From NCBI GenBank assembly GCA_964354495.1, contig CAYHAA010000021.1, forward strand, positions 1 through 32,000: DNA of 32,000 bases, written 5' to 3'. The DNA comes from an uncultured archaeon. GTDB taxonomy: Archaea; Asgardarchaeota; Thorarchaeia; Thorarchaeales; Thorarchaeaceae. The notes below the pieces were generated by a model. It did no database searches. It was not told the origin of the DNA and saw only the letters and a program-made list of their open reading frames with translations. A program made the position numbers and the translations under genes. Positions 5,473 to 19,175 of this stretch are shown piece by piece (position 1 is the first letter of the stretch; every line of letters begins with the position of its first letter).

Positions 5473-6517
5473 GGGGGAGCAAGCACAGCTCAAGCTCATA
5501 GAACTAGGCAGGCATATACTCGACCCAATTCTTGAGAGTCGGTTTCCTGTGATTGACGTTCCTGACAGAAACACTAACAATATTGTGTATGAGGCTCAGC
5601 GGAACAGGTTCGTCTTGGGAGCCTCCAAGAATGTCAGAGACTCAAGCAACATCAATCATATACGCAGCTTCGCTCAACTTGCTTGGGTCGCAAGTTACTC
5701 AAAACAACTTCTGAAAGCATCTAGAACCAGTTCTCTGCGTGACCTCTATTACTCAAGTGAGGCCTTTGGTGTGTCTTTCAAGGACCAAGCCGAATCAGAT
5801 CGTATCGTCACCGATTTGGAGAGCGTCACTGGGTTGCCACGCGAATCCTTTGGCATTTTTCCGGATGAACACTCTTCCATCTATGGCGAGCTGATAATGA
5901 GGTACACTGTTCCGGACTATAATGGTCGTGAGATCGACTTGACCATTAGTCCAGACGGATTGCCGATTGGTCCCGCTATAATGACTGCTGAACCCGTCCG
6001 AACTAATGCCGAGATTGTGTTGGCTGTCGAGTCTGGGGGTATGTTCTCTCGTCTGATCGAAACAAAGGCGTGGCAGAGATTCAAGGCTGTGTTGATTCAA
6101 CTCGGTGGCCAGCCCCCACGGGCTACAAGAAGTCTGATACGGACTCTTCACAAAGAGCTTGATCTGCCTGTGTATCTCTTTACTGATGGTGACCCATGGG
6201 GAATGCATATTGCTCAAGTCATCATGTCGGGCAGCGCTAACTCAGCGCATATAGAGGGTCTGACCACTCCTGAGGCCAAATGGATTGGTGTCACGCCTCA
6301 AGATATCGAGCAGTATTCTCTACCGACTGACAAACTGAACAATGCTGACCTGAAGCGACTCGATGAACTCTCCCGAGACGTACGCTACTCTGACAGTGAG
6401 TGGCAGCATCATATTGAGGGCTTCAGAAGACTGAGAACTAAGGCGGAACAGCAGGCCTTCAGCAGGTATGGTATGGACTTTGTTGTTGATACCTACCTCT
6501 CAGACAAAATCGCCTAG
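5465..6517 (+). CDS. top6A: DNA topoisomerase VI subunit A
   Basis: Catalytic Tyr motif SLRDLYY, TOPRIM motifs AVESGGMF and TDGDPWG, KAEQQAF; overlaps the top6B stop. Confidence 0.96.
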   Translation: MNEGEQAQLKLIELGRHILDPILESRFPVIDVPDRNTNNIVYEAQRNRFVLGASKNVRDSSNINHIRSFAQLAWVASYSKQLLKASRTSSLRDLYYSSEAFGVSFKDQAESDRIVTDLESVTGLPRESFGIFPDEHSSIYGELIMRYTVPDYNGREIDLTISPDGLPIGPAIMTAEPVRTNAEIVLAVESGGMFSRLIETKAWQRFKAVLIQLGGQPPRATRSLIRTLHKELDLPVYLFTDGDPWGMHIAQVIMSGSANSAHIEGLTTPEAKWIGVTPQDIEQYSLPTDKLNNADLKRLDELSRDVRYSDSEWQHHIEGFRRLRTKAEQQAFSRYGMDFVVDTYLSDKIA

Positions 6518-7560
6518 ATCCATCCAATCCCGAGTGGATTGCCTATGATGAGTATCAGAACAGTACCATAGACGAATAGTGCTTGGATGAGGAGTAAGAT
6601 AGCCACATTCTTCTTCTCTGTGATGTTCCTGAAGAAGTGCGGCAGGATCCAGTAGATGGTAAATGGCCCCACGACTTCCAAGGTTCCATCCTCTCTTGGT
6701 GTGGCGAACTTCACCCACTTCATCCCTTTCCGTCTAGCATAGAGTCTGTAGATAAGATAGAGCAGAAAATTGGTTCCAAATGGGATGTACATCACGAATG
6801 CAAATCTGTCCATATTGCCTATGATCAATGCTGCAGCCATGGCCGCTCCCATGGGTAGGTTACCAACATCGCCAGAGAGAATCTTTGCAGGATACCTGTT
6901 GAAGATCAAGAACGCCAATGATGCACCGAGCAGTGCTGCTGCAACAACTCCTGCCTCTATCTGCGTGGGAGCAACTGCATGACCATCAAGGTATGGCATG
7001 AGAAATATGTATAGAACAAGGCCTGAAGCGTTGATTGCACTCAGCCCTGCCTCGAGTCCATTCATGCCCGCATACATGTTCGTTGCATCAATAATGAATG
7101 TCATCATGAGTGGAACTATGACAAGAGCGTATGCTATCCCAAAGTTCACTGTTCCTATGAACGGTATCGTGATTGTGGGCGTACCAATACTCAGCGCCAT
7201 CATTGGAATAGACGCCACCAGAGGAAGTGCAATCTTCGTCTTGGTACTGAAGTCCAGATTGTCATCTAGGAGACCAATCATCCCCGCCATAAGGATGGAG
7301 ACCAACGCTCCGAACAGTCCTACCATGCCGACTTCAAGGCTCTGGAAGGTCGTAAGTCCAACGATAGCAAGTATGGCGAAGACAATCGCAAAGAGGATGA
7401 CATACCCTCCGCCCTTTGGTATCTCAGGTCTTTCAGGCTTGTGAACGTCTGTACCTGTGAACCCCTTCTCTTTGAGCATGCGAATTGCGCTGGGTGTAAA
7501 CAGTACTACCACAACAAAGGATACCAGAACGGCGATTAGAATCTCTATCAAATGTACCAC
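6514..7560 (-). CDS. aglH: UDP-GlcNAc:dolichyl-phosphate GlcNAc-1-phosphotransferase (AglH/ALG7/DPAGT1-like, glycosyltransferase family 4)
   Basis: Polytopic membrane protein with GTDVHKP, GLLDD, ATNMYAGMNGLE and FNRYPAKILSGDVG motifs. Confidence 0.88.
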   Translation of the reverse strand: MVHLIEILIAVLVSFVVVVLFTPSAIRMLKEKGFTGTDVHKPERPEIPKGGGYVILFAIVFAILAIVGLTTFQSLEVGMVGLFGALVSILMAGMIGLLDDNLDFSTKTKIALPLVASIPMMALSIGTPTITIPFIGTVNFGIAYALVIVPLMMTFIIDATNMYAGMNGLEAGLSAINASGLVLYIFLMPYLDGHAVAPTQIEAGVVAAALLGASLAFLIFNRYPAKILSGDVGNLPMGAAMAAALIIGNMDRFAFVMYIPFGTNFLLYLIYRLYARRKGMKWVKFATPREDGTLEVVGPFTIYWILPHFFRNITEKKNVAILLLIQALFVYGTVLILIIGNPLGIGWI

Positions 7561-7735
7561 CCTTTTCGGACGAAGACACTACGAGTTGGTTTTGACCTTT
7601 TCGGAGTAGGGCAAAGTCGTGCATGCTTTCAACATCCGAAATCTATTTTAACGAACCAGAAGCTCGGGCGCACCATCCATGGTCCAGTGGACACCACAGA
7701 CATGGAATTCTCCCAATTGAGCACGGTGATCCGTA

Positions 7736-10726
7736 TTGAGACTGCTGAATAGTAAGATAGGGGTTCTTGTACTGCTTGGTCTTCTCATTTCAAGCAGCAT
7801 GTTGGCAATGAGCCCGATCTCAAGTACAATGGAAAGCGAAGAATTGGCTCAGAGGATGGCAGATGGTTCTACTCTGGCAACGTCTTCAATGAACGTCTCG
7901 ATACCATATGTTGACAACCATTATGGTTCAGCAGATGGAATAATAGACCCAACTGAATACGCCTCTATCTTTACGGACCCTGCCTCGGGAGTCACAGCCT
8001 ATTTCGAGCACAATGGCACCTTGCTCTATGTTGGTCTAGAGGCATCTACGAAGGGGTGGATTGGCTTTGCCTGGCAGAACTACACCTCAGGTTTCACAGA
8101 GGCTGGTCTGAACAACAGTGATGTGATTGTCGGCTATGTTCCTGGCACAACTCTCACAAGTATGTGGCGCGTGAAAGGAACAGATGGGGTGACAGTTCAC
8201 TACTCTCTGAGTCTTCGAAATGGGTCACTGGTCCAAGAGGGGTCTGCCCCTTCAGAGAGCTCGACTGAACCTATTTCGGGCGCATCTCTACTTCAGGCAT
8301 ACAAAGATGCGATTATTGGGATGAGGATTGGTGAAATCCGCCACTTTATCATTCCTCCTGAAAAGGGATACACCACATCCACTGACAATCTCTATGGTCA
8401 GGACCTCATCTATACAATCACGCTGACTCGCATCTATAGGTCTGGCGTGTCAAGAACAATCAACCCCGCTGACACGAGTCAAATCGTCTATAGTGATGAA
8501 TACGGAACAAGCACCTTCCAGCATCTCCCCGACACTGACCAGACTCGGATTCTATCTGCTGATGGGTCCGATAATGGTACAATGACTCAGTTGGAGTACG
8601 TCCTCAATCTGAACAGCACAGATCTCAATGATGTTCCTCTGTTCAATGGGACCGACATTGTCTTTCCATTTGTCTTCATGTTCGGGTCCGGTGAAGAACT
8701 GAATGGGCTCCCTGTACAGCATACATACTGGACAGAGCCAGCCATGATTGAAGTCTTACCGAATCTGCCTCCCACAATGACCATTATCAGTCCTGAGGAT
8801 GGCGCAACTATTGAATGGATTGCATCACTGAAGCTGAATGCCACGAACGACTTTGTTGTGCAGGCATCCTACAAAATGGATAATGAATCTTGGGCTGATC
8901 TTCAGTACAACTTCAAATCGAAGATATGGGAAGCAGTTGTTGACTTGTCTATCTATGGGGAAGGTCCGCATATCTTCTCGTTCAATGCCACTGATCTCTC
9001 AAATGCAACAGGTATTGCGTATCTCAATTTTGAGATAGATAGACCATTCTTCCCCCTCTTGGGAATGCGCATGGATGTATCACGTTCATTCATTGTCACT
9101 CCCAACTTTGGTTCACGAGTGGTTGATACCTATACAATCAAGAATAACGGGTCGGTACCTATCAGCTCAATAGACATGTATCTCCCTGAGCAGTACGAAT
9201 CGAATGTTATCGAATTTGTGGCTGCAGATAATTCGGGTCATGACATCAGGGTTGTTCGATTGGAGAATGCTGATGGAATGATTCACTGGAGATTGCACTT
9301 CCCAGATGCAGTCAAGTTCCAGGAGTCGTTCATCTTCAAGACGACAACATATATGCACAGTCTCTTCTATTTGATAGTTTCAAAAGACTATGAGTATAGA
9401 CTTGAGTTCCTAAGATACCCAACAGTTCCCTACGTACTGAACAAGGCGAATTTTGAACTCAACTTCGAGGGTGGTGGTTCACTAGTTCCGAATGAGGTAG
9501 TGCCCAATCTTCGGTTGACCAATCTCGAACCTTTCACGGAAAACCTATTCGGCGTTAGTCTACGACTCTTCACCGAGAACATAATATCACGTCGGGCGAC
9601 CAGAATCATTGTGGATGCATGGGGCTGGTTGACATACGAGGAAACCATCTCGCTGGAAAACACTGGTGGACAGGCCATTGCCACAATCCCATTGACCTTA
9701 CCTGCATATTCAGCCAATATCAAGATATTCGACCAGGTTGGCGCCCTAGCAACTTCGCAGACTCAGGCGGCTATTACAACGGGCGATTTCAATGAAACAC
9801 GAGCGCTCACAATCAAGCTGGGAACAGATAGATTTGGTGCTGATGGTTTCAAACCAACATACAAATACACGTTCAAGGTAACGTATGTTGTCCAGGCAAG
9901 TGCCTATCAGAGTGCAGCCTCAGGGGGAATTCTGCTAGAACCTCCAATGGCGCTGCTTGGAGACATTCTGGTTCTCACCCATAGTTTGGATATTGTCTTC
10001 ACAGCATCAGTAGTAGCCAATGATGCGACGGAGGGTTACAGGCGACTCTATGGTATCTTTGATACATCGTATAGTTACACTTTCGATAATAGAACCCAGC
10101 GGAACCCCGCAGAGATATCTGTTGTCTATCAGAACACACTTGGCGCTGCAGCTAGGCCTGTTCTCTTCTCTCTAATAGTTGGCATCATAGCGGCACTCTA
10201 TGTCTCATACAGAAAGGTCAAATTGCCTGAAGATGCTCTGGGAGCGAGCGCTCAATCAGATGAGCATGGTGAATCTGATAAAGTGAAGCAGGTGGGCGCA
10301 CCTCCAGAACTTCTCTCCGACTTTGCCCAACTCTACTCAAGCAAGACAACTCTCAGTATTGATCTTGAGAAGCTCGATGCCGATAGAAGGAGAGGGAAGG
10401 TCAAGAAGCGAGAGTACATGATGCGCGACAGTGACCTGAAGAAGCAGATTGAGGTACTTGACCGTAGACTGCCCAGCGTGAAGGAGGAGCTCTCCCAACA
10501 TGGCACACGGTACAGAGATATGATTGCCCAGCTGGAACTTCAAGATGAACGAATCGAGGGCGCCAAGGCTGGTCTGCGTCAGCTCCTCATCAGGAAGAAG
10601 AAACAGAGAATTAGCCGCGCAGCCTTTGAGAAGTCCCGTCAGGACTACTTGAAGACGATTCAGAAGGCGCAGAGCGCTACTGATAGGATTCTCCTAACAA
10701 TCCAGGAGGAAGCTGGAGAGGTCTAG
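7736..10726 (+). CDS. Type I membrane protein: signal peptide, DOMON domain with inserted FKBP-type domain, Ig-like domain, ribophorin I (OST1/RPN1)-like luminal region, TM helix and cytoplasmic helical tail
   Basis: DOMON motifs (LLYVGLEASTKGWIGFAW, SDVIVGYV, GTMTQLEYVLNLNSTDLND); FKBP motifs (VTVHY, IIGMRIGEIRHFIIPPEKGY); RPN1-like motifs (RIIVDAWGWLTYEETISLENTG, LPAYSANIKIFDQVGALATS); one TM helix at about aa 809-825; many N-x-S/T sequons; TTG start with a GGTGA RBS. Confidence 0.78.
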   Translation: MRLLNSKIGVLVLLGLLISSSMLAMSPISSTMESEELAQRMADGSTLATSSMNVSIPYVDNHYGSADGIIDPTEYASIFTDPASGVTAYFEHNGTLLYVGLEASTKGWIGFAWQNYTSGFTEAGLNNSDVIVGYVPGTTLTSMWRVKGTDGVTVHYSLSLRNGSLVQEGSAPSESSTEPISGASLLQAYKDAIIGMRIGEIRHFIIPPEKGYTTSTDNLYGQDLIYTITLTRIYRSGVSRTINPADTSQIVYSDEYGTSTFQHLPDTDQTRILSADGSDNGTMTQLEYVLNLNSTDLNDVPLFNGTDIVFPFVFMFGSGEELNGLPVQHTYWTEPAMIEVLPNLPPTMTIISPEDGATIEWIASLKLNATNDFVVQASYKMDNESWADLQYNFKSKIWEAVVDLSIYGEGPHIFSFNATDLSNATGIAYLNFEIDRPFFPLLGMRMDVSRSFIVTPNFGSRVVDTYTIKNNGSVPISSIDMYLPEQYESNVIEFVAADNSGHDIRVVRLENADGMIHWRLHFPDAVKFQESFIFKTTTYMHSLFYLIVSKDYEYRLEFLRYPTVPYVLNKANFELNFEGGGSLVPNEVVPNLRLTNLEPFTENLFGVSLRLFTENIISRRATRIIVDAWGWLTYEETISLENTGGQAIATIPLTLPAYSANIKIFDQVGALATSQTQAAITTGDFNETRALTIKLGTDRFGADGFKPTYKYTFKVTYVVQASAYQSAASGGILLEPPMALLGDILVLTHSLDIVFTASVVANDATEGYRRLYGIFDTSYSYTFDNRTQRNPAEISVVYQNTLGAAARPVLFSLIVGIIAALYVSYRKVKLPEDALGASAQSDEHGESDKVKQVGAPPELLSDFAQLYSSKTTLSIDLEKLDADRRRGKVKKREYMMRDSDLKKQIEVLDRRLPSVKEELSQHGTRYRDMIAQLELQDERIEGAKAGLRQLLIRKKKQRISRAAFEKSRQDYLKTIQKAQSATDRILLTIQEEAGEV

Positions 10727-11868: not shown

Positions 11869-12880
11869 GCAGCCATGGATTGCTTTGAATCCTACTTCAA
11901 GCTTATGGTGCTTTCTCGAAAACTAAGAGTCATTATCTTCAGCTGCATGGATTCCTCTATCATTCAAAAATGTCGCGATGCTGCCATAATGAAACACCGC
12001 CGAAGGGAACTCAGAAAGACGCATATTGTTAATTATGAATTTCAAGGGATGCCTGAATTTCGTTGTAGTATCAACAAACTGTTTGCACTCGAAGAATTGC
12101 GCCACTTCAATGATATCCACATCAATACTCTGAAGTGCCACCACTTTCTCACTCGGTTCTATCTGAAGGAATAGGATTCTCCAGTGTTTTGAGAATGGAT
12201 GTTTCAGAAGTTCGAGATTCGGATCTGCTACCCACGTTATGGGATTACAAGTTTGGTTTGACATAGATTGCTTGCAGTTCTCGGCAGGTCCATTGCTTTC
12301 AGAAGTTCAGATTCCTTTCTGCCTCGGCAGCTGAAAGGTTTGAGAAAAGTCATACTAATGGGAGTATTTGCACTTTTCACTTCTGAAAACTCAATATCTG
12401 TTTCAGAATTCCACCGAGACTTCTTTTGAAAGGCGCTCCCTTCGTCTTTGGATACCTCCGAGTCTCAATCAAATCAATCGTGTCTTTCATAGTGATTGAG
12501 TAGATGGTTTTGGTGTTTTGGACCTGTTCTTCTCTTAGTTTAAGAAATGCAAGTATTATTATTCAAGTCCAGACAAAACGAACCATTCATTCACATTGGC
12601 ACCCTCAAACATCTCTTGGATAATCACAGCAAGAAAGGTCGAGCAGTGAGTATCTCCCCACTCACCCCAAGGATATTCAATGCTATATTGTTTCCCAAAG
12701 ACAAACCCCTGCACAGACCTCCTTGTAGTCCTCCTTGATTTCGGAGAGAATTGGGAAACCCTGAGCAATCCTGATAGCATAAGTACCGGGATTCATCTTT
12801 CTCTGCAAGTCATGCTTTCATTCAATATCTGCAGACTGCAAAGCATAAAGCTTATTTTGTATCAATATAATATATTCCTT

Positions 12881-13198
12881 ATGAATTCCGATAATCCAAT
12901 CCCCGAGCTTGAATTCTTAGTGGCGTTAGAACGTACAGGCGCCCTTCGCCTTCTGGTTTCTCTCTTGCAGGGAGATAGATTCATCTCAGAACTGATACGG
13001 CGCCATGACAACCAAGGAATCGCATCGCAACCTGCATTGGAGAAGACCCGTACTGAACTAGTCAAAATTAGACTCATTGAGGAACATGAAGTGTTCAATG
13101 AACTGACCAGAAAGACACGTCTCTATGTTGGGTTGACTCATAAGGGGAGAGAGGTGGCTGAAGGCATTCTGAAAGTTGCAGGAATTCTTTCAAATTAG
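12881..13198 (+). CDS. Winged helix-turn-helix transcriptional regulator
   Basis: 105 aa from ATG 12881 after an AT-rich stretch; GALRLLVSLLQGDRFISEL...LEKTRTELVKIRLIEE...YVGLTHKGREVAE wing pattern. Confidence 0.75.
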   Translation: MNSDNPIPELEFLVALERTGALRLLVSLLQGDRFISELIRRHDNQGIASQPALEKTRTELVKIRLIEEHEVFNELTRKTRLYVGLTHKGREVAEGILKVAGILSN

Positions 13199-13268
13199 TA
13201 TGGAAAAATGACACAGATTCTCATTATGAGCTAAAATATTATGAATAGAAATCAACTCTTGATGAATC

Positions 13269-13484
13269 ATGTCTGAAAAGGGGTTAATGGAGCGGGACGG
13301 TCTGTTACGAGCGTTGCAAGATATCCTCGGTGAGATGGCAGACAAGATTGGCGAGCTTCCTGCTAAGTGCCAGATATGTCCCCCGATGAAGATACTCTCT
13401 GAATTTGCACTAAGACTCCGCAAAGCTGGACTTCAAGAGGAAGCTGAGGTCATAAAGAATGTCAGAGACTTCTACAATATCTAA
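13269..13484 (+). CDS. Small hypothetical protein with a CxxC motif
   Basis: 71-aa helical-looking ORF with CQICPP, same strand as and just downstream of the wHTH gene; no family recognised. Confidence 0.55.
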   Translation: MSEKGLMERDGLLRALQDILGEMADKIGELPAKCQICPPMKILSEFALRLRKAGLQEEAEVIKNVRDFYNI

Positions 13485-13670
13485 ATCCTATTTACTTCTT
13501 TCATATATCACATCATCAACACTCGGATGTCCTGTGAGAATACTCGACAACGCATGGTCGGAGAATAAAGTAATAGAATTGAAATCCATCTTAAGAGAAG
13601 TGCTATCGTATGATTTCAAGGCATACAATAGCACACCACAATCAGTAAAGGAATATTCCAGATTCTACTA

Positions 13671-14192
13671 CTAGGAATCAGTCACGAAGATCCTTACGTG
13701 GAAGTCTCCGTAGCCTCCTTGACAGAATACCCATACTACAATATAGTTACCATTTAAGCCATCCCAGTATGCGTAATAACCGGAACTAGTAAATTGGGTG
13801 GTGCCAAGAACCTCGTCATATCCTTCCTCACCATCATCTACCATTATACTTTGCCACATTTGAGCGAATACGTAGTGATTCCGGATAACTCCAATGGCAA
13901 CATCGAGTTCGTCATCAACCCATACCCACACCGAGAAATAGTGTGATGTGTGTGTCGTGTCAAAATCCTCTTCTTCCCAATGGAACCATACTCGTTCTTG
14001 AGATTGATTAAATGTTCCGTAATAATCATAGTACGAGTTAGGAGTCATGTCTTCATCTTGCTCAGCATATCCGATATATGTTCCCGGGACCCAACTTGGC
14101 CAAGTTGCTTGTACTGGCACTGCAATGAATGCAGTCAATACTGCAGCTAGAAAGAGTGAAGCGATTAAGTATTGGTGTTTTCGAATTTTCAT
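13671..14192 (-). CDS. Hypothetical secreted acidic, aromatic-rich protein
   Basis: Basic-hydrophobic signal peptide ending VQA; mature part rich in D/E and W/Y/F; no TM anchor; AT-rich promoter upstream. Confidence 0.75.
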   Translation of the reverse strand: MKIRKHQYLIASLFLAAVLTAFIAVPVQATWPSWVPGTYIGYAEQDEDMTPNSYYDYYGTFNQSQERVWFHWEEEDFDTTHTSHYFSVWVWVDDELDVAIGVIRNHYVFAQMWQSIMVDDGEEGYDEVLGTTQFTSSGYYAYWDGLNGNYIVVWVFCQGGYGDFHVRIFVTDS

Positions 14193-14210
14193 ATTTGAAT
14201 TCCTCCTGCA

Positions 14211-14236
14211 ATGCAGTAATATACTGCATACTGCAT
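14211..14236. promoter_or_regulatory. Inverted-repeat operator candidate between divergent genes
   Basis: ATGCAGTA-ATA-TACTGCAT perfect inverted repeat plus a second tandem TACTGCAT; related TACAGT repeats at 14279 and 14289. Confidence 0.5.
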
Positions 14237-14391
14237 TGAAGTATAGTATATATTAATCCTATTAAACATATTGAATACTACAGTTAATTACAGTATACAA
14301 TTAAATCAGCAGTTTTTTTGAACGACATGGCTCCTGCAAAAACCTTAAGCACCTATTGTAGGAGCCACGACATAAAACAGAAAAGACATCA

Positions 14392-16149
14392 TTGAGGAGT
14401 ATGGGACCATTGAGGAAGTATCCAATCATCATTTGCCTCTTGGTCGTACTGTTTCTGAATGCAGGTATTCAAAGTGGTAATGCTGATGTGACTTCACTTA
14501 GTTCAAATCACATGATAAAAAGCGATAGCCGCCTCTTTGACTGGGTACAGGAATTGCAGGAACACGCTCCTATCGTAGTTGCTGCCGACGATGACTTCGT
14601 TGTTCAAGGATGGGAAGGAAACGGGTCAGAGAGTAATCCCTTCATTATTGAGGAGATTGTGATTAGAGCACCATATTCCGCCATAATGATATCGAACACT
14701 ACCAAACACTTCGAGATTCGCAGATGTCTTTTCACCACAGAAAATCCTCCTGTTAGCGGAGGCCCAGCATTGAACTTCAGGAATGTGACAAATGGTCGTG
14801 TGGCCAGTTGCTTCATTAATGGAACATCGTATGGGGTAGTAGTCAGAAATTCCACAGATTGCCAATTCACTGATAATATCGTGTCTGATAATATGTTCGA
14901 TGCATTTGTCTTTGAATACGGACAAGACATCCTTGTTGAGAATAACACAATCCATCACTCGAGTTCTGGAATTTCGTTGGAGGAGTCAACTAACTTTGCA
15001 ATATGTGACAATCGTATCTATGAGTGCTACAAAGGTATGTACCTGATCGATGTTCAGTCTTGCGATGTTCGAGAAAATATGGTCTGGAGAAGCAATATTG
15101 GAATAGATATGACGCGCGCACAGAGCGTCATCACGAACAATACTATCTACGGGAACACTAACATTGGTGTTCGAGCCAGCACAGGCATAGCATCAACTAT
15201 GGTCTATGGAAATTGTATTGGCTGGAATGGAGCAACAAATGCTCAGGATGATAGTAATTCTACCGAATGGGATGATGGTATTGACACTGGAAATTGCTGG
15301 AGTGACTGGCTTGGAACAGGCAACTATTCGATTCCCGGAACTGCGGCAGGTCAGGATCGATGGCCGTTGCTTCTAGTCGATGATGTGACTCCAGTTGTTG
15401 ACTCTCCGGATGATGTCGATTTTGAGTTTGGAATCAGAGGCAAGTCAGTGACATGGAATACGAGTGATGAATTTCCCTTGACCTACCAGATTTTGAGAAA
15501 TGGTGAGGTGATAGAAGCGCAAACTTGGACCGGACAAACGCTGACTGTTCAATTGGAAGGCCTAGTTCCTAGAACTCATTTCTATATGGTTCGACTCTGG
15601 GATGCTCAAGGGAATTATGTAACTGATCAGGTGTCTGTCATTATTGCAGAGGCAGAACCTCCGATGATTAACCACCCCCCTGATATACAGCATATTGTTG
15701 GTGATGTGGGGTACAATATTACTTGGATCCCAACGGATGCATACCCTGACCACTATGAAGTCTTTATCAACGGGACAGCACACGAATCAGGTGACTGGAA
15801 CGGTTCTGAGATTGTAATTCTTGTTGATGGCCTTGATGTCGGTGTGCATGATTATACTCTAGTAGTATATGATGTAATAGGACAGGAAACAATGGATACA
15901 GTATTAGTGGTAGTTTTCGCTTATTCCAATCCTCCTCCACCCAATTATCTTCTACAGGTGCTGTTTTACCTTGGTATCGGTGCGGTTGGTTTCATAGTTG
16001 CCTTTTCAATTCTCTACATAAGGAAACCATTCTTGAAACATATCAGAGATGAAGATGATTCTGTGGACAACGATGAGATCCAGGAAGCGATAAAGGAACT
16101 AGTTGCTGACAGAGATATGAGCGCAGACTTCAGTGATAGTCACAAATGA
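14392..16149 (+). CDS. Cell-surface protein with parallel beta-helix (NosD/CASH-like) repeats, two Ig-like repeats and a C-terminal TM anchor
   Basis: Signal peptide; HAPIVV..DDDF...WEGNGSESNPFIIE cap; repeated xxNNxIxxN units; GNCWSDW; two repeats of type (S/I)TWxxxDxxPxxY.(I/V)..NG; hydrophobic helix near the C-terminus. Start TTG 14392 or ATG 14401. Confidence 0.85.
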   Translation: MRSMGPLRKYPIIICLLVVLFLNAGIQSGNADVTSLSSNHMIKSDSRLFDWVQELQEHAPIVVAADDDFVVQGWEGNGSESNPFIIEEIVIRAPYSAIMISNTTKHFEIRRCLFTTENPPVSGGPALNFRNVTNGRVASCFINGTSYGVVVRNSTDCQFTDNIVSDNMFDAFVFEYGQDILVENNTIHHSSSGISLEESTNFAICDNRIYECYKGMYLIDVQSCDVRENMVWRSNIGIDMTRAQSVITNNTIYGNTNIGVRASTGIASTMVYGNCIGWNGATNAQDDSNSTEWDDGIDTGNCWSDWLGTGNYSIPGTAAGQDRWPLLLVDDVTPVVDSPDDVDFEFGIRGKSVTWNTSDEFPLTYQILRNGEVIEAQTWTGQTLTVQLEGLVPRTHFYMVRLWDAQGNYVTDQVSVIIAEAEPPMINHPPDIQHIVGDVGYNITWIPTDAYPDHYEVFINGTAHESGDWNGSEIVILVDGLDVGVHDYTLVVYDVIGQETMDTVLVVVFAYSNPPPPNYLLQVLFYLGIGAVGFIVAFSILYIRKPFLKHIRDEDDSVDNDEIQEAIKELVADRDMSADFSDSHK

Positions 16150-16277
16150 GTGGTATCCTAGATAACACTTGGGTATCTCCAGGCACAATCTCGTGATTGT
16201 GAACAGAATCAAGAATGAACCTTCTTTCGGGTCGAGAATTACATTCTGATAAAGTGCAAGAAGTCGAAGAAGTGCTT

Positions 16278-17060
16278 TCACTCTGATTCTATGATTTGTC
16301 GGTAGACTCTTTCACAATAGGAGAGAACCCTCAAACCGCCTTTTCGAAGGGCTTCAACATCAATCTCTGTATAGGCTGAAATCGCCTTATTGTACTTAAT
16401 GGATTGCTTATCGATTAAACTCAAACCTGAATGAATTTGAGCTCTTCTAAGTACACCAACTCTTTCATATTCTTTCCTGATGTGATTATGTTGATGTTCG
16501 AAAAACCTGTGTGCAAGTTCTACTCTAGAATTCTTTCTGAATAGTCCATTATGTATTAGACAATCGACAGTGAATACTAAAGACATTGCAGTCCATAACT
16601 GATAACAGACTATATCAAGGAGGATTCTCTGTTCGATATAACTCAAAGATTCCTGGACTTGTTCTATTGATTGCCAAACTGAATTTGTGAAGGTATGGTG
16701 GAGCAATGGAACTTCCACTTCTTCTCCAAATAAACGAATTCCATCCCGAAAGAATGTATACCAGTATGGATTCTGGATTCCTTGGATTGCAGCATCAAAT
16801 TCCTTTTGGGTATATACTTTCACATCTAGCAGTAGACGCTTGTTTCTTAGTATCTGAAGAGTACCTCTTACCACTTCCAATATTGTCTTTTTTTGACTTG
16901 TACCTGCTGAAATTAAACAGAAATCAATATCACTATTTGAATCTGCATTCTGTGTAGCCCAAGAACCTCCGAGATATATCGATGAACAATATGGTTTGAC
17001 ACCATTTATGAATTGCATAACATCAACGGGGAGTAAATTAGTGCTGTTCAATTTCCTCAC
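16278..17060 (-). CDS. Pol-beta-superfamily nucleotidyltransferase (MNT-like) with a C-terminal helical, possibly HEPN-like, domain
   Basis: IYLGGSWATQNADSNSDIDF motif plus a third acidic residue (LDVKVY); start reassigned to GTG 17060 because ORF-track aa 1-85 are IS and promoter DNA. Confidence 0.72.
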   Translation of the reverse strand: MRKLNSTNLLPVDVMQFINGVKPYCSSIYLGGSWATQNADSNSDIDFCLISAGTSQKKTILEVVRGTLQILRNKRLLLDVKVYTQKEFDAAIQGIQNPYWYTFFRDGIRLFGEEVEVPLLHHTFTNSVWQSIEQVQESLSYIEQRILLDIVCYQLWTAMSLVFTVDCLIHNGLFRKNSRVELAHRFFEHQHNHIRKEYERVGVLRRAQIHSGLSLIDKQSIKYNKAISAYTEIDVEALRKGGLRVLSYCERVYRQIIESE

Positions 17061-17079
17061 GCTATGATATTCTATATTG

Positions 17080-17087
17080 ATATAAAA
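17080..17087 (-). promoter_or_regulatory. TATA box for the nucleotidyltransferase gene
   Basis: TTTTATAT on the minus strand 20-27 nt upstream of GTG 17060, consistent with a leaderless transcript. Confidence 0.55.
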
Positions 17088-17117
17088 TATTATATACATA
17101 AGTCTTTCTATAGCTGC

Positions 17118-17637
17118 GGCTCTGTGAAAAGTCACCTCCCATCGCATTCTAGGAAGTTCAGTTGCTCGATGTTGTGAGGAGTCCCCTCGATCAGTAGTTC
17201 TCACCGCTGCTTTTTGGGTTTCCTCGACCTCAGGCTCCTGGTGAATCGCACCTTCAGCATCCCAAACATGGTTTCCACCAGACTCCTCCTTCCAAACTCG
17301 TTGACTCTCTTCCACTCCGCGGGGTCAGCTCGAAACTCCGGTATCAACTGTCCGTATGCTCAGTTATCTCTGGCGTTCATTCCCAGATTTCTCTTGGGCT
17401 CGATGGCTGGATATGCTCCCAAGTCGTGGATGAGCTGCACGTTCCTCTAGGAGATGTAGGCCTTGTCACCACAGACAGTTTCAAGCTCTTGATGCGGTAC
17501 TCGTCGTAGGAGGGGGACCAGTTCTCGTGCATCTCCTCTGGATCGAAATCGCATTCGGACTGCATGGATTATCAGGGTATCTGTGCTCACAGCTGCGCGG
17601 AGAGCTGTGAAACGCCATTTCAACTTCTTCTTGAAAC
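17118..17637 (-). mobile_element. IS5-family (IS903-like end) transposase remnant, 5'-truncated pseudogene
   Basis: Minus frame reads AAVSTDTLIIHAV...GDARELVPLL...TVCGDKAYIS*RNVQLI...AIEPK...FGRRSLVETMFGMLKVRF...*; in-frame stops at 17447-9, 17360-2 and 17201-3; terminal GGCTCTGTGAAAAGT at 17118-17132; no matching other end seen. Confidence 0.82.
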
Positions 17638-17750
17638 GCCCAGACAGTCCTCACATATGGATATGGCGCATATGGCGCCTCTCTCACGGGAGCCTCGAGC
17701 CATCTCAGCTTGGATGTATCTGTAGAATCGAGATGGAGAATGCCTCTCTC
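17638..17750 (-). pseudogene. Diverged internal fragment of a MiaB/MtaB-like methylthiotransferase gene
   Basis: 17750-17688 matches 23378-23440 at 54/63 nt (ERGILHLDSTDTSKLRWLEAP vs ERGILHLESTDVSKLRWLESP); after a frameshift it continues GAICAISICEDCLG vs GVICTVPICEGCLG. Confidence 0.85.
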
Positions 17751-18480
17751 CACGCATCTAATGATTGATGTTTCTTGGAAGAAATCCCGAATGCCCGAGG
17801 CAATATCACCTCTTGAGGGGTGACAGAGTAGAATGGGTGAATGCGATATCATGCTACGACGATGGTGAATACTCCAATGATGTCACTGCATCAAGTTGGG
17901 GACTGGATAGCGAGCCAAAGGCCTTTGTCGAGAGTGATGTGTTCGAAGCTGAAATGCTGTGGTTAGATGGTGATCTGGAAAACGCAAATCGATTCATTAG
18001 ATGAGGCGACATTCAAAATGAGCTACTCCAGATGGCCAAATGGTCAGGACTTGCAGATGTCTAAATCGCTTGGGGGGTTCTGTCGCTCTTGGAAACCTTC
18101 TTCAAGCGACACTCCAGAGGACATGCTCAATGCAAAAAGTGACTGGTATGGTTCTGAATCTTCATACGATGAGTTTCTTGGTTCTATTGTCCGGAAATAT
18201 AGGCAAGCAATCTGGGAATCATCATTGTGTCCTGCAAGGGAAGATGCATGCTGATGAGTAACTATTCTTTGATTTACTGGTTTCAGCAAGAAGATTGCTA
18301 AGGCTGAAACATATCAAGAAGATCCTATCAGTAATACTATCTCGTGTTAGAATTCCCATTGATACTACCGCAAGAGCATCGGGCCTACGATTCTCTTCAG
18401 TCATGTCTATTATCTCGGAATACACGTACTCAAGTGATTACGGCTTTGGAAACGAGTGAATATTCCCCTTTTTGAGAATC

Positions 18481-18660
18481 CCCGGGAGAGTAACTGAAGA
18501 TAAGGTGTTCATCTGTGATAATCATAGCCTAGATAGGGAACCAGAAGTAATCGTTGAAGATTAAGGAACTAAGGTTGTCTATCTCGTCATTTTTCCTCAC
18601 TGTAGTCACAAGAATGTGATAAGCGAAACAATTCGTGATAAGTGTGGGGCATCATTGTAA
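18481..18660 (+). pseudogene. Decayed gene ending in a zinc-ribbon relic
   Basis: Ends FPHCSHKNVISETIRDKCGASL*; single-base changes (ttt or cgt to tgt) restore C-x2-C-x10-C-x2-C-G-x2-L; in-frame stop at 18562-18564. Confidence 0.45.
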
Positions 18661-18841
18661 ATGAGAATGGATGGGGGATGAAGACTTTGAAGGCATCAAT
18701 CAGAAGATGTTCGGGAAAAGAAGATGACTGGCGTCAAAGAAGAAATGTACAGTCATGCTGAAATACCATTGCGAGCAATGACCAAAGACCTAGAAAGAGT
18801 ACTTAATCATAAACGGTTTAGTGCCCCAAAATGCATGAACT

Positions 18842-18857
18842 CAACACTACGGGGCTG
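18842..18857 (-). repeat. Degenerate direct repeat of the tRNA-Gln 5' end (att-like)
   Basis: caacactacggggctg vs ctacaccacggggctg (11854-11869), 14/16 identical, same orientation, 3 bp from the trm112 stop codon. Confidence 0.5.
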
Positions 18858-18860
18858 TTG

Positions 18861-19175
18861 TTAGGTAAGGCCAAAGGGTATGCCACTCTTCAAGATGTCG
18901 GTCGGTATATTCTTCTTCCATCTCTCAAGAAAGGCCGTTTCCTCTATCCGCTGCTTGCCATCCATCCGCAGATTGTCAGGAAGCATGCATGCTATCCCCT
19001 CGATGACCGGATACCATCTACCACATTTTGGGCACCTGATCAATGCTTCGTCAATCTCTTCAACATCCTCTCCGTCTGATTCCAGATTATGGGACTTGTA
19101 GACCTCTAAGGTGAGATCACTTCTGCAGTCACTCACCGGGCAGGCAAGGATGTCCATCAGCCAGCGTTTCATCAT
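18861..19175 (-). CDS. trm112: Trm112 family methyltransferase activator
   Basis: MKRWLMDILACP...EIDEALIRCPKCGRWYPVIEGIACML; GGAGTGA RBS before ATG 19175/19172. Confidence 0.9.
   Translation of the reverse strand: MMKRWLMDILACPVSDCRSDLTLEVYKSHNLESDGEDVEEIDEALIRCPKCGRWYPVIEGIACMLPDNLRMDGKQRIEETAFLERWKKNIPTDILKSGIPFGLT

Follow-up and report, generated by a model that had tools for sequence, protein, structure and literature searches.

A DOMON domain carrying a nested FKBP domain at the N terminus of a Thorarchaeal OST1/ribophorin I protein

The subject of this study is a gene in the 32,000-nucleotide stretch of DNA that we analysed (the window: positions 1 to 32,000, forward strand, of contig CAYHAA010000021.1, GenBank assembly GCA_964354495.1, from an uncultured archaeon of the Asgard family Thorarchaeaceae, order Thorarchaeales). 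The open reading frame (ORF), 7736..10726 (+), encodes a type I membrane protein of 996 amino acids (aa), whose parts follow one another as signal peptide, DOMON(FKBP), Ig, OST1/ribophorin I, transmembrane (TM) helix and cytosolic four-helix bundle. By DOMON(FKBP) we mean a DOMON beta-sandwich split by an FKBP domain that is inserted in it. From sequence, profile and predicted structure we regard this nested architecture as settled, with hardly any doubt remaining. An FKBP-type domain inside a DOMON domain, with altered key residues in both, had been proposed by a first-pass annotation for nucleotides 7907-8722, which correspond to aa 58-329 (8722 is the final base of the His329 codon). The motifs it quoted lie where it had put them: SDVIVGYV ends at aa 135, and VTVHY, LIYTITL, IVYSDEYG and QH occupy aa 152-156, 224-230, 250-257 and 328-329, respectively. 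Of its interpretation, the nested architecture and the absence of the Met ligand in the DOMON domain stand, and its suggestions of a possibly glycan-binding DOMON and of a weak or non-catalytic FKBP are weighed below among the possible roles; what it missed is the context, namely, that the module is an N-terminal extension of OST1, a subunit of the oligosaccharyltransferase (OST). Together with the restriction of the extension to one order among the genomes searched, this context gives a different picture of what the FKBP most probably faces.

One DOMON sandwich interrupted by an FKBP domain

The direct match of the gene product to the Pfam DOMON family (PF03351) is below threshold (aa 94-146, E 0.005, 17.4 against 32.7 bits), the weak score being due to the splitting of the domain. 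An exhaustive search with aa 40-345 returned, besides the family that has the full module, relatives of the FKBP only, of the N-terminal half only and of the C-terminal half only. The relatives of the two halves have one uninterrupted DOMON: nine of the ten that were scanned pass the Pfam cut-off (E 1e-10 to 5e-16), and the tenth barely misses it (32.4 against 32.7 bits). In P0140, residues 34-110 correspond to aa 53-134 and residues 103-164 to aa 237-296, a collinear match to both halves that is also found in P0216, and in a multiple alignment the two halves complement each other along the contiguous DOMONs. The family profile was aligned by hhalign with a profile of 14 contiguous DOMON proteins, which include the ten scanned with Pfam. 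The two profiles match with a probability of 99.7% (E 1.8e-26) over 174 columns, and the alignment has a single gap in the template, of about 110 aa, opposite about aa 139-247. Scanned against the genome of the organism, the profile of contiguous DOMONs picks out this gene alone, apart from one marginal match given below, and does so in two pieces that are collinear (7928-8149 and 8471-8665).

In the insert, Pfam FKBP_C (PF00254) covers aa 146-230, with E 9e-8 in the whole protein and 2.5e-9 in the excised piece; the scores are 32.7 bits for the whole protein and 37.8 bits for aa 140-240, against a gathering cut-off of 21.1. PF00254 is also on record for most of the homologues, and the PDB sequences that the insert matches are FKBPs exclusively. 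An AlphaFold2 (AF2) model of aa 40-345 was built from a 31-sequence alignment (predicted local distance difference test, pLDDT, 87; predicted template modelling score, pTM, 0.82). In this model, residues 103-199 match SlyD (3cgm; VIA-align Z 12.4, 1.9 Å, 85 aa), FKBP13 (4nnr; Z 11.8), FKBP2 (2pbc; Z 11.7) and human FKBP11 (Z 11.1, root-mean-square deviation 1.9 Å, 89 residues). SlpA and the FKBP domain of trigger factor are also among the structural matches, which for FKBPs are in the Z range of 10-12. Foldseek likewise finds FKBPs (TM-score up to 0.78 by target), and the fold of these proteins, a five-stranded sheet wrapped round a short helix, is matched by the model.

On either side of the insert, structures of the DOMON fold span model residues ~13-305 with Z 12-15. 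The closest are the gamma subunit of ethylbenzene dehydrogenase (2ivf_C; Z 15.3, 168 residues, 2.9 Å) and NxrC (7b04_C; 14.7), followed by the DBH DOMON (4zel_B; 13.4) and two fungal cytochrome domains (6jt6, 12.7; 1d7c, 12.2). The carbohydrate-binding module CBM9 (1i82) also matches across both halves, at Z 11.9, ranking below the haem- and DBH-type DOMONs, and a putative carbohydrate binder of Bacteroides scores Z 10.6 against the model. In the ESM Atlas, a DOMON cluster superposes on 163 residues at 2.1 Å (model residues 20-305). This shape search, which covered clusters of at least 50 members, returned DOMON-only and FKBP-only clusters and none that combines both.

The model places the FKBP in a hairpin between the strands DVIVGY (aa 129-134) and VYSDEYG (aa 251-257). 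In a minimal FKBP, the first strand runs antiparallel next to the last, which brings the two ends of the domain together, as insertion requires. Such adjoining ends would let the FKBP occupy a loop and leave the sandwich intact, and DOMON(FKBP) as a whole is predicted to be a single rigid unit (from the pTM given above). Thus the nesting that the first-pass annotation proposed is borne out by the Pfam match, by the collinear profile match and by the model, in which both flanks form one DOMON. Artefact, mis-assembly and chance were considered as explanations and ruled out, the same architecture being present in more than 200 proteins and in 74 of the 77 genomes of the order.

The OST1 part and the spread of the extension

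The remainder of the protein is related to OST1. Its C-terminal 145 aa match the cytoplasmic domain of OST1 of the Lokiarchaeon MK-D1 (PDB 8WHN; phmmer E 6.3e-8), a four-helix bundle to which ribosomes bind in pull-downs (PMC11417166). With an AF2 model of aa 430-996 (pLDDT 84), the best eight Foldseek matches in the PDB are RPN1/Ost1 chains (E 1.6e-29 to 3e-18), and the ninth match is at E 6e-8. Among these chains, 8b6l_O, 6s7o_E and 6ezn_A have E values of 1.6e-29, 4e-24 and 1.4e-21, with about 600 and 450 columns aligned. The topology is also that of OST1: a signal peptide, two extracellular sandwiches, one TM helix and a cytosolic four-helix bundle. The Pfam family Ribophorin_I (PF04597) matches this sequence weakly (13-17 bits against a cut-off of 25) and is a recorded domain of many homologues that are 55-68% identical to it; a scan for PF04597 in the whole genome and in 14 control genomes gave no match anywhere and was thus uninformative. 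In the 3.3-Mb genome (97.7% complete), this gene is the only OST1-like one, and there is one STT3/AglB gene. The sequence match of the bundle and the predicted structure show the gene to code for an OST1/ribophorin I subunit. From homology with the eukaryotic and MK-D1 proteins, we assume that this OST1 associates with AglB and SecY.

The presence of OST1 in Asgard archaea was already known (PMC10307638; PMC8993221). The C-terminal 567 aa have the same fold and the same order of parts as human RPN1, yeast Ost1 and the OST1 of MK-D1. The human and MK-D1 OST1s are both 607 aa long, and their cytosolic domains bind ribosomes (PMC11417166). Unlike these two, the present protein has an additional 390-aa N-terminal DOMON(FKBP)-Ig part, which is found in one order only among those searched. 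A homologue search with aa 430-996 returned the same long family only, among the best 120 matches.

More than 200 full-length homologues (970-996 aa) are available, and their source names are those of Thorarchaeota and Sifarchaeia metagenome-assembled genomes. When 301 genomes of the phylum were scanned, the full module (profile positions ~3-306) was found within reading frames of 981-1034 aa in 73 of the 76 genomes of the same family and in the single genome scanned from the order's second family. Outside the order, the same scan gave matches to FKBP alone or to parts of DOMON and no full module. The length of OST1 was followed in the 151 genomes that are at least 85% complete. Within this order, the frames that contain the OST1 part measure 981-1034 aa (38/38; the few others are truncated by contig ends), compared with 566-687 aa in the other Asgard families searched. 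The extension is a lineage-specific acquisition of one order among the genomes searched. A possible intermediate, OST1 with a DOMON and without the FKBP, was not found in these genomes.

Once acquired, the module has been well kept. The mean column conservation is 0.82 in the N-terminal half of DOMON, 0.75 in FKBP and 0.76 in the C-terminal half, against 0.65 in the extracellular core of OST1, and the cytosolic bundle alone (0.87) is above the segments of the module. In a few genomes of the family there is, in addition, a shorter paralogue (~570-600 aa), in which the DOMON(FKBP)-Ig cassette, 42% identical, is joined to an Ig-like C terminus that is not OST1 (P0124, P0127, P0128; G179:C23:20701-21600; G299:C125:6267-7160).

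The features of the gene and of its two neighbours are listed in Table 1. That aa 1-29 are a signal peptide is inferred from their hydrophobicity and their conservation in homologues. The TTG start is supported by the MxLLNxKIGT... leader that the homologues share at their N termini; the deposited 975-aa version (P0002) begins at an internal ATG (Met22) and is without the signal peptide (window 7736-7798). The protein is free of cysteine and has 15 N-X-S/T sequons (aa 53-785, window 7892-10090), every one of which falls in the stretch bounded by the signal peptide and the TM helix. Twelve of the 15 are conserved in 87% or more of the 119 family members.

Table 1. Positions of the parts of the OST1 gene and of the adjacent genes in the window
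Feature	Residues (aa)	Window position	Strand	Basis and remarks
Whole gene	996 aa	7736..10726	+	TTG start; ORF list and translation
Signal peptide (predicted) / N-terminal hydrophobic segment	1-29	7736..7822	+	Hydrophobic window aa 6-29, kept in homologues
DOMON, N-terminal half	52-137	7889..8146	+	Profile matches, model strands aa 52-134; contains Leu125 (8108-8110) in the conserved motif GLNNSD
Inserted FKBP domain	142-238	8159..8449	+	Pfam FKBP_C, structural matches, alignment to canonical FKBPs
DOMON, C-terminal half	240-342	8453..8761	+	Profile and structural matches; contains His263 and His329 (8720-8722)
Ig-like spacer, Big_7-like	346-432	8771..9031	+	Pfam Big_7 E 0.002; above cut-off in homologues P0122-P0124
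OST1/ribophorin I extracellular beta-sandwich domains	440-800	9053..10135	+	AF2 model, Foldseek
Single TM helix	802-825	10139..10210	+	Hydrophobicity; helix 373-396 of the aa 430-996 model
Cytosolic four-helix bundle	852-996	10289..10723	+	phmmer E 6.3e-8 to 8WHN; four long helices in the model
GT4-family GlcNAc-1-P transferase (AglH/ALG7-like)		6514..7560	-	Pfam Glycos_transf_4 E 1e-28
285-aa ORF	285 aa	10841-11698	+	Always 3' of the OST1 gene; sub-threshold HD-domain match E 0.004

Altered residues in the two pockets

Pocket residues of the insert were mapped by alignment to the genome's own canonical 109-aa FKBP (L002 ORF) and to BpML1, in the numbering of FKBP12, whose pocket we take to be formed by Y26, F36, D37, W59, Y82 and F99. 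The equivalents of Y26 and Y82 are kept (Y156 and Y212), V166-Q167 stand at F36-D37, and tyrosines (Y189 and Y226) replace W59 and F99; the substitutions are those that the first-pass annotation had read by eye. The "80s loop" of the insert is four residues shorter than in the aligned FKBPs. Among 119 family members, Y156 and Y212 are present in all, Y189 and Y226 in 118 and Q167 in 116. This near invariance of the altered residues suggests that the pocket is under selection rather than in decay. In the most divergent full-length member, P0129, the positions of F36-D37, W59 and F99 are F-D, F and F. That P0129 has the canonical residues at F36-D37 and F99 points to an ordinary FKBP as the probable origin of the insert, with remodelling in the main lineage afterwards. 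Some active FKBPs deviate at the canonical pocket sites, too.

In the DOMON, the residues in question are the axial haem ligands, a Met and a late His. Of the 14 contiguous relatives, 10 have the Met, in a GxGMDGA(N/D) loop, and 13 have the late His. Leu125 aligns with the Met column and His329 with the late-His column, again as the first-pass annotation had it. In the 119 full-length members, which are 31-90% identical to this protein, position 125 is Leu in 118, Phe in one and Met in none, and a conserved sequon, N126-N-S128, fills the position of the Met loop in 118. His329 is kept in 116 and His263 in 117. An Arg replaces His329 in P0118 and P0121; in the paralogues neither His is kept, and position 167 of the FKBP is A or D in two of three.

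The Met/His mode of haem ligation has been described for cellobiose dehydrogenase (CDH), and the proteins called CYBDOM have an SxDxxMGxD motif for it (PMC10691727; PMC4846438). With the columns assigned by motif similarity, the present family lacks this Met+His pair. The contiguous-DOMON profile has no significant match among PDB sequences (best E 0.15), and the Met and His columns are therefore not tied residue by residue to a solved haem DOMON. With Leu or Phe at the Met position of all members seen, haem binding of the Met/His type is most likely absent from this DOMON. It shares the beta-sandwich with the haem-binding DOMON cytochromes (the CDH cytochrome domain, CYBDOM, the ethylbenzene dehydrogenase gamma subunit and NxrC) and differs from them in having Leu at the Met position and a sandwich interrupted by a domain of ~100 aa. 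In probably binding no haem, it would resemble the non-haem DOMON of DBH (PMC4846438).

The contiguous relatives (P0140, P0154, P0161, P0171, P0212, P0266, P0149, P0228) are proteins of ~220-290 aa with a signal peptide. The conserved Met and the late His are present in most of them, and several end in a TM helix and a KVYRFSEM-like tail. Judged by these features, they look like membrane-anchored extracellular b-type cytochromes. Elsewhere, a marginal match to the contiguous-DOMON profile, possibly due to chance (G000:C3:133348-133452 (-), E 8e-4, 35 columns), lies in the C-terminal extracellular part of the genome's 926-aa STT3/AglB ORF (L020).

Genomic setting, proposed function and meaning

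The gene is the seventh in the string NMD3, RIO1, KH/Pno1-like, Top6B, Top6A, GT4 (on the opposite strand), OST1 and the 285-aa ORF. The order of this string is kept in six other loci, which come from five genera of the same family and from a genome of the order's second family. The GT4 and OST1 genes are arranged head to head, so that the first enzyme of glycan assembly and OST1 share a divergent intergenic region of 175 bp (7561-7735). The 285-aa ORF is 70-75% identical between genera, more than OST1 is. Further along the window, G+C is 0.38-0.44 over most of 12001-19000 (0.48 at 17001-18000), against 0.47-0.53 in most of the remaining window, and this low-G+C stretch has ORFs without Pfam matches and a NosD/beta-helix protein (14392-16149).

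Domain-in-domain designs are known from folding factors. Peptidyl-prolyl isomerase (PPIase) domains are nested in the chaperone scaffolds of trigger factor, SurA, PrsA and PpiD, and SlyD and archaeal FKBPs have a domain inserted in the flap. As in these folding factors, which act at or beyond the translocon, one domain sits inside another in the present protein. It differs in that a DOMON sandwich takes the place of the helical chaperone domain as host, and in that the entire unit is joined to a subunit of OST. The FKBP, which in SlyD receives the inserted domain, is itself the inserted one here. A parallel of a different kind is human FKBP11, a single-pass FKBP located beside OST-A at Sec61, which contacts the ribosome through a basic C-terminal helix (PMC12804085; PDB 9N9J/9YGY). 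In both proteins, an FKBP on the exoplasmic side goes with one membrane span and with a cytosolic part that touches the ribosome, a contact that we assign here from homology. However, FKBP11 is a separate protein that is recruited reversibly, whereas the FKBP described here is a covalent part of OST1 and nested in DOMON. We treat the likeness as an analogy and not as a sign of common descent.

We lean, by a narrow preference, towards the view that the module is an extracellular FKBP tethered to the translocon and OST on a rigid, probably haem-free DOMON pedestal, where it would serve as a holdase or prolyl isomerase. In this proposal, the gene codes for the OST1 of a Thorarchaeota-type oligosaccharyltransferase-translocon, which, unlike other Asgard OST1s, carries an extra extracellular N-terminal extension of ~390 aa. 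The extension consists of a DOMON related to Met/His-bearing DOMONs, an FKBP in the hairpin past the strand that follows the Met position, and then the Ig-like spacer. The TM helix of OST1 and its ribosome-binding cytosolic bundle would anchor the FKBP outside the membrane, beside the exit site of SecY/AglB. There, the FKBP could bind proline-containing segments of emerging, newly glycosylated polypeptides, and the DOMON would be its pedestal and possibly a ligand-binding surface. The proposal builds on the domain identities, the nesting, the identity of OST1, and the conservation of the module and its confinement, in the genomes searched, to one order; the loss of haem, the activity of the FKBP, its clients and its position relative to the translocon are what it would add. 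Several observations weigh against it. In FKBP12, changes of D37, W59 and F99 reduce catalysis, and the remodelled pocket may thus bind without isomerising. The conservation of His263 and His329 means that a cofactor may be bound in a manner other than Met/His. Finally, the authors of the FKBP11 study dispute a role of that protein as an isomerase of nascent chains, CCDC134 burying its pocket (PMC12804085).

The main rival takes up some of these points: the FKBP would be a non-catalytic docking module or assembly adaptor, whose pocket holds on to a single constant partner; this might be a loop of AglB that contains proline, a different subunit of OST or TRAP, or a secreted factor. A pocket that is non-canonical (aliphatic-Q, Y, Y) and yet kept in 116-119 of 119 members speaks for such a role, as do the predicted rigidity of DOMON(FKBP) and the burial of the FKBP11 pocket by CCDC134 at the translocon, where the authors favour an adaptor (PMC12804085). 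However, the conserved neighbours, GT4 and an unrelated HD-like ORF, include no obvious ligand or partner, P0129 with its canonical F-D/F pocket suggests an ancestral catalytic FKBP, and the paralogues bear the same cassette without OST1. We consider the docking role unlikely, if the strongest of the alternatives.

Two other alternatives put the DOMON at the centre. Malectin forms a complex with ribophorin I, and the DOMON could, comparably to malectin or to CBM9, be a lectin-like domain or a binder of lipid-linked oligosaccharide that reads glycans at the OST, the FKBP being secondary. Sugar binders exist in the DOMON superfamily (PMC4846438), CBM9 and the Bacteroides protein match the model in structure, the DOMON is without the usual Met ligand, the N-terminal half of DOMON is the most conserved extracellular segment, and the gene is paired with the first enzyme of glycan assembly. 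Nevertheless, the nearest sequence relatives bear Met and His, the nearest folds are of the haem or DBH type and not CBM9, and the DBH DOMON shows that loss of a haem ligand need not imply sugar binding (PMC4846438). We judge this reading to be rather improbable. Still far less credible is that the DOMON binds haem or a metal through His263 and His329 for redox chemistry outside the cell, the OST1 part being a membrane anchor only. The near invariance of the two histidines, the resemblance of the contiguous relatives to membrane-anchored Met/His cytochromes and the haem-binding subunits among the best structural matches would agree with it. Position 125, however, is never a ligand residue, the loop of the Met position has become a sequon, His329 is an Arg in two members and lost in the paralogues, and no redox partner is encoded nearby.

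FKBP and DOMON are common domains, and Asgard OST1 is known. Our literature search found no paper that describes a nested DOMON(FKBP) unit or its fusion to OST1, and the homologues are annotated publicly as "FKBP-type peptidyl-prolyl cis-trans isomerase" or as "hypothetical". The arrangement is a clean case of a guest FKBP in the loop of a beta-sandwich, and of a cytochrome-type DOMON re-used after loss of the Met ligand. More speculatively, DOMON(FKBP) might be the cis-fused archaeal counterpart of OST accessory factors that are recruited in trans, such as FKBP11 and malectin, with the former haem pocket reading the new glycan or the lipid-linked donor, the FKBP acting on the adjacent polypeptide, and the whole having arisen independently in one Asgard order. 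We think it doubtful that all of this holds; if it did, folding control coupled to glycosylation would exist outside the cell, without an endoplasmic reticulum.

Asgard OST1 homologues serve as evidence that the eukaryotic translocon-OST machinery is older than eukaryotes. To this subunit, a whole order has attached a conserved FKBP-in-DOMON module, which is more conserved than the extracellular core of OST1 itself. The protein provides a natural fused analogue of the arrangement of FKBP11 and OST-A recently seen in human cells, and its aa 30-345 provide an expressible handle on the question whether glycosylation is coupled to folding at the archaeal membrane.

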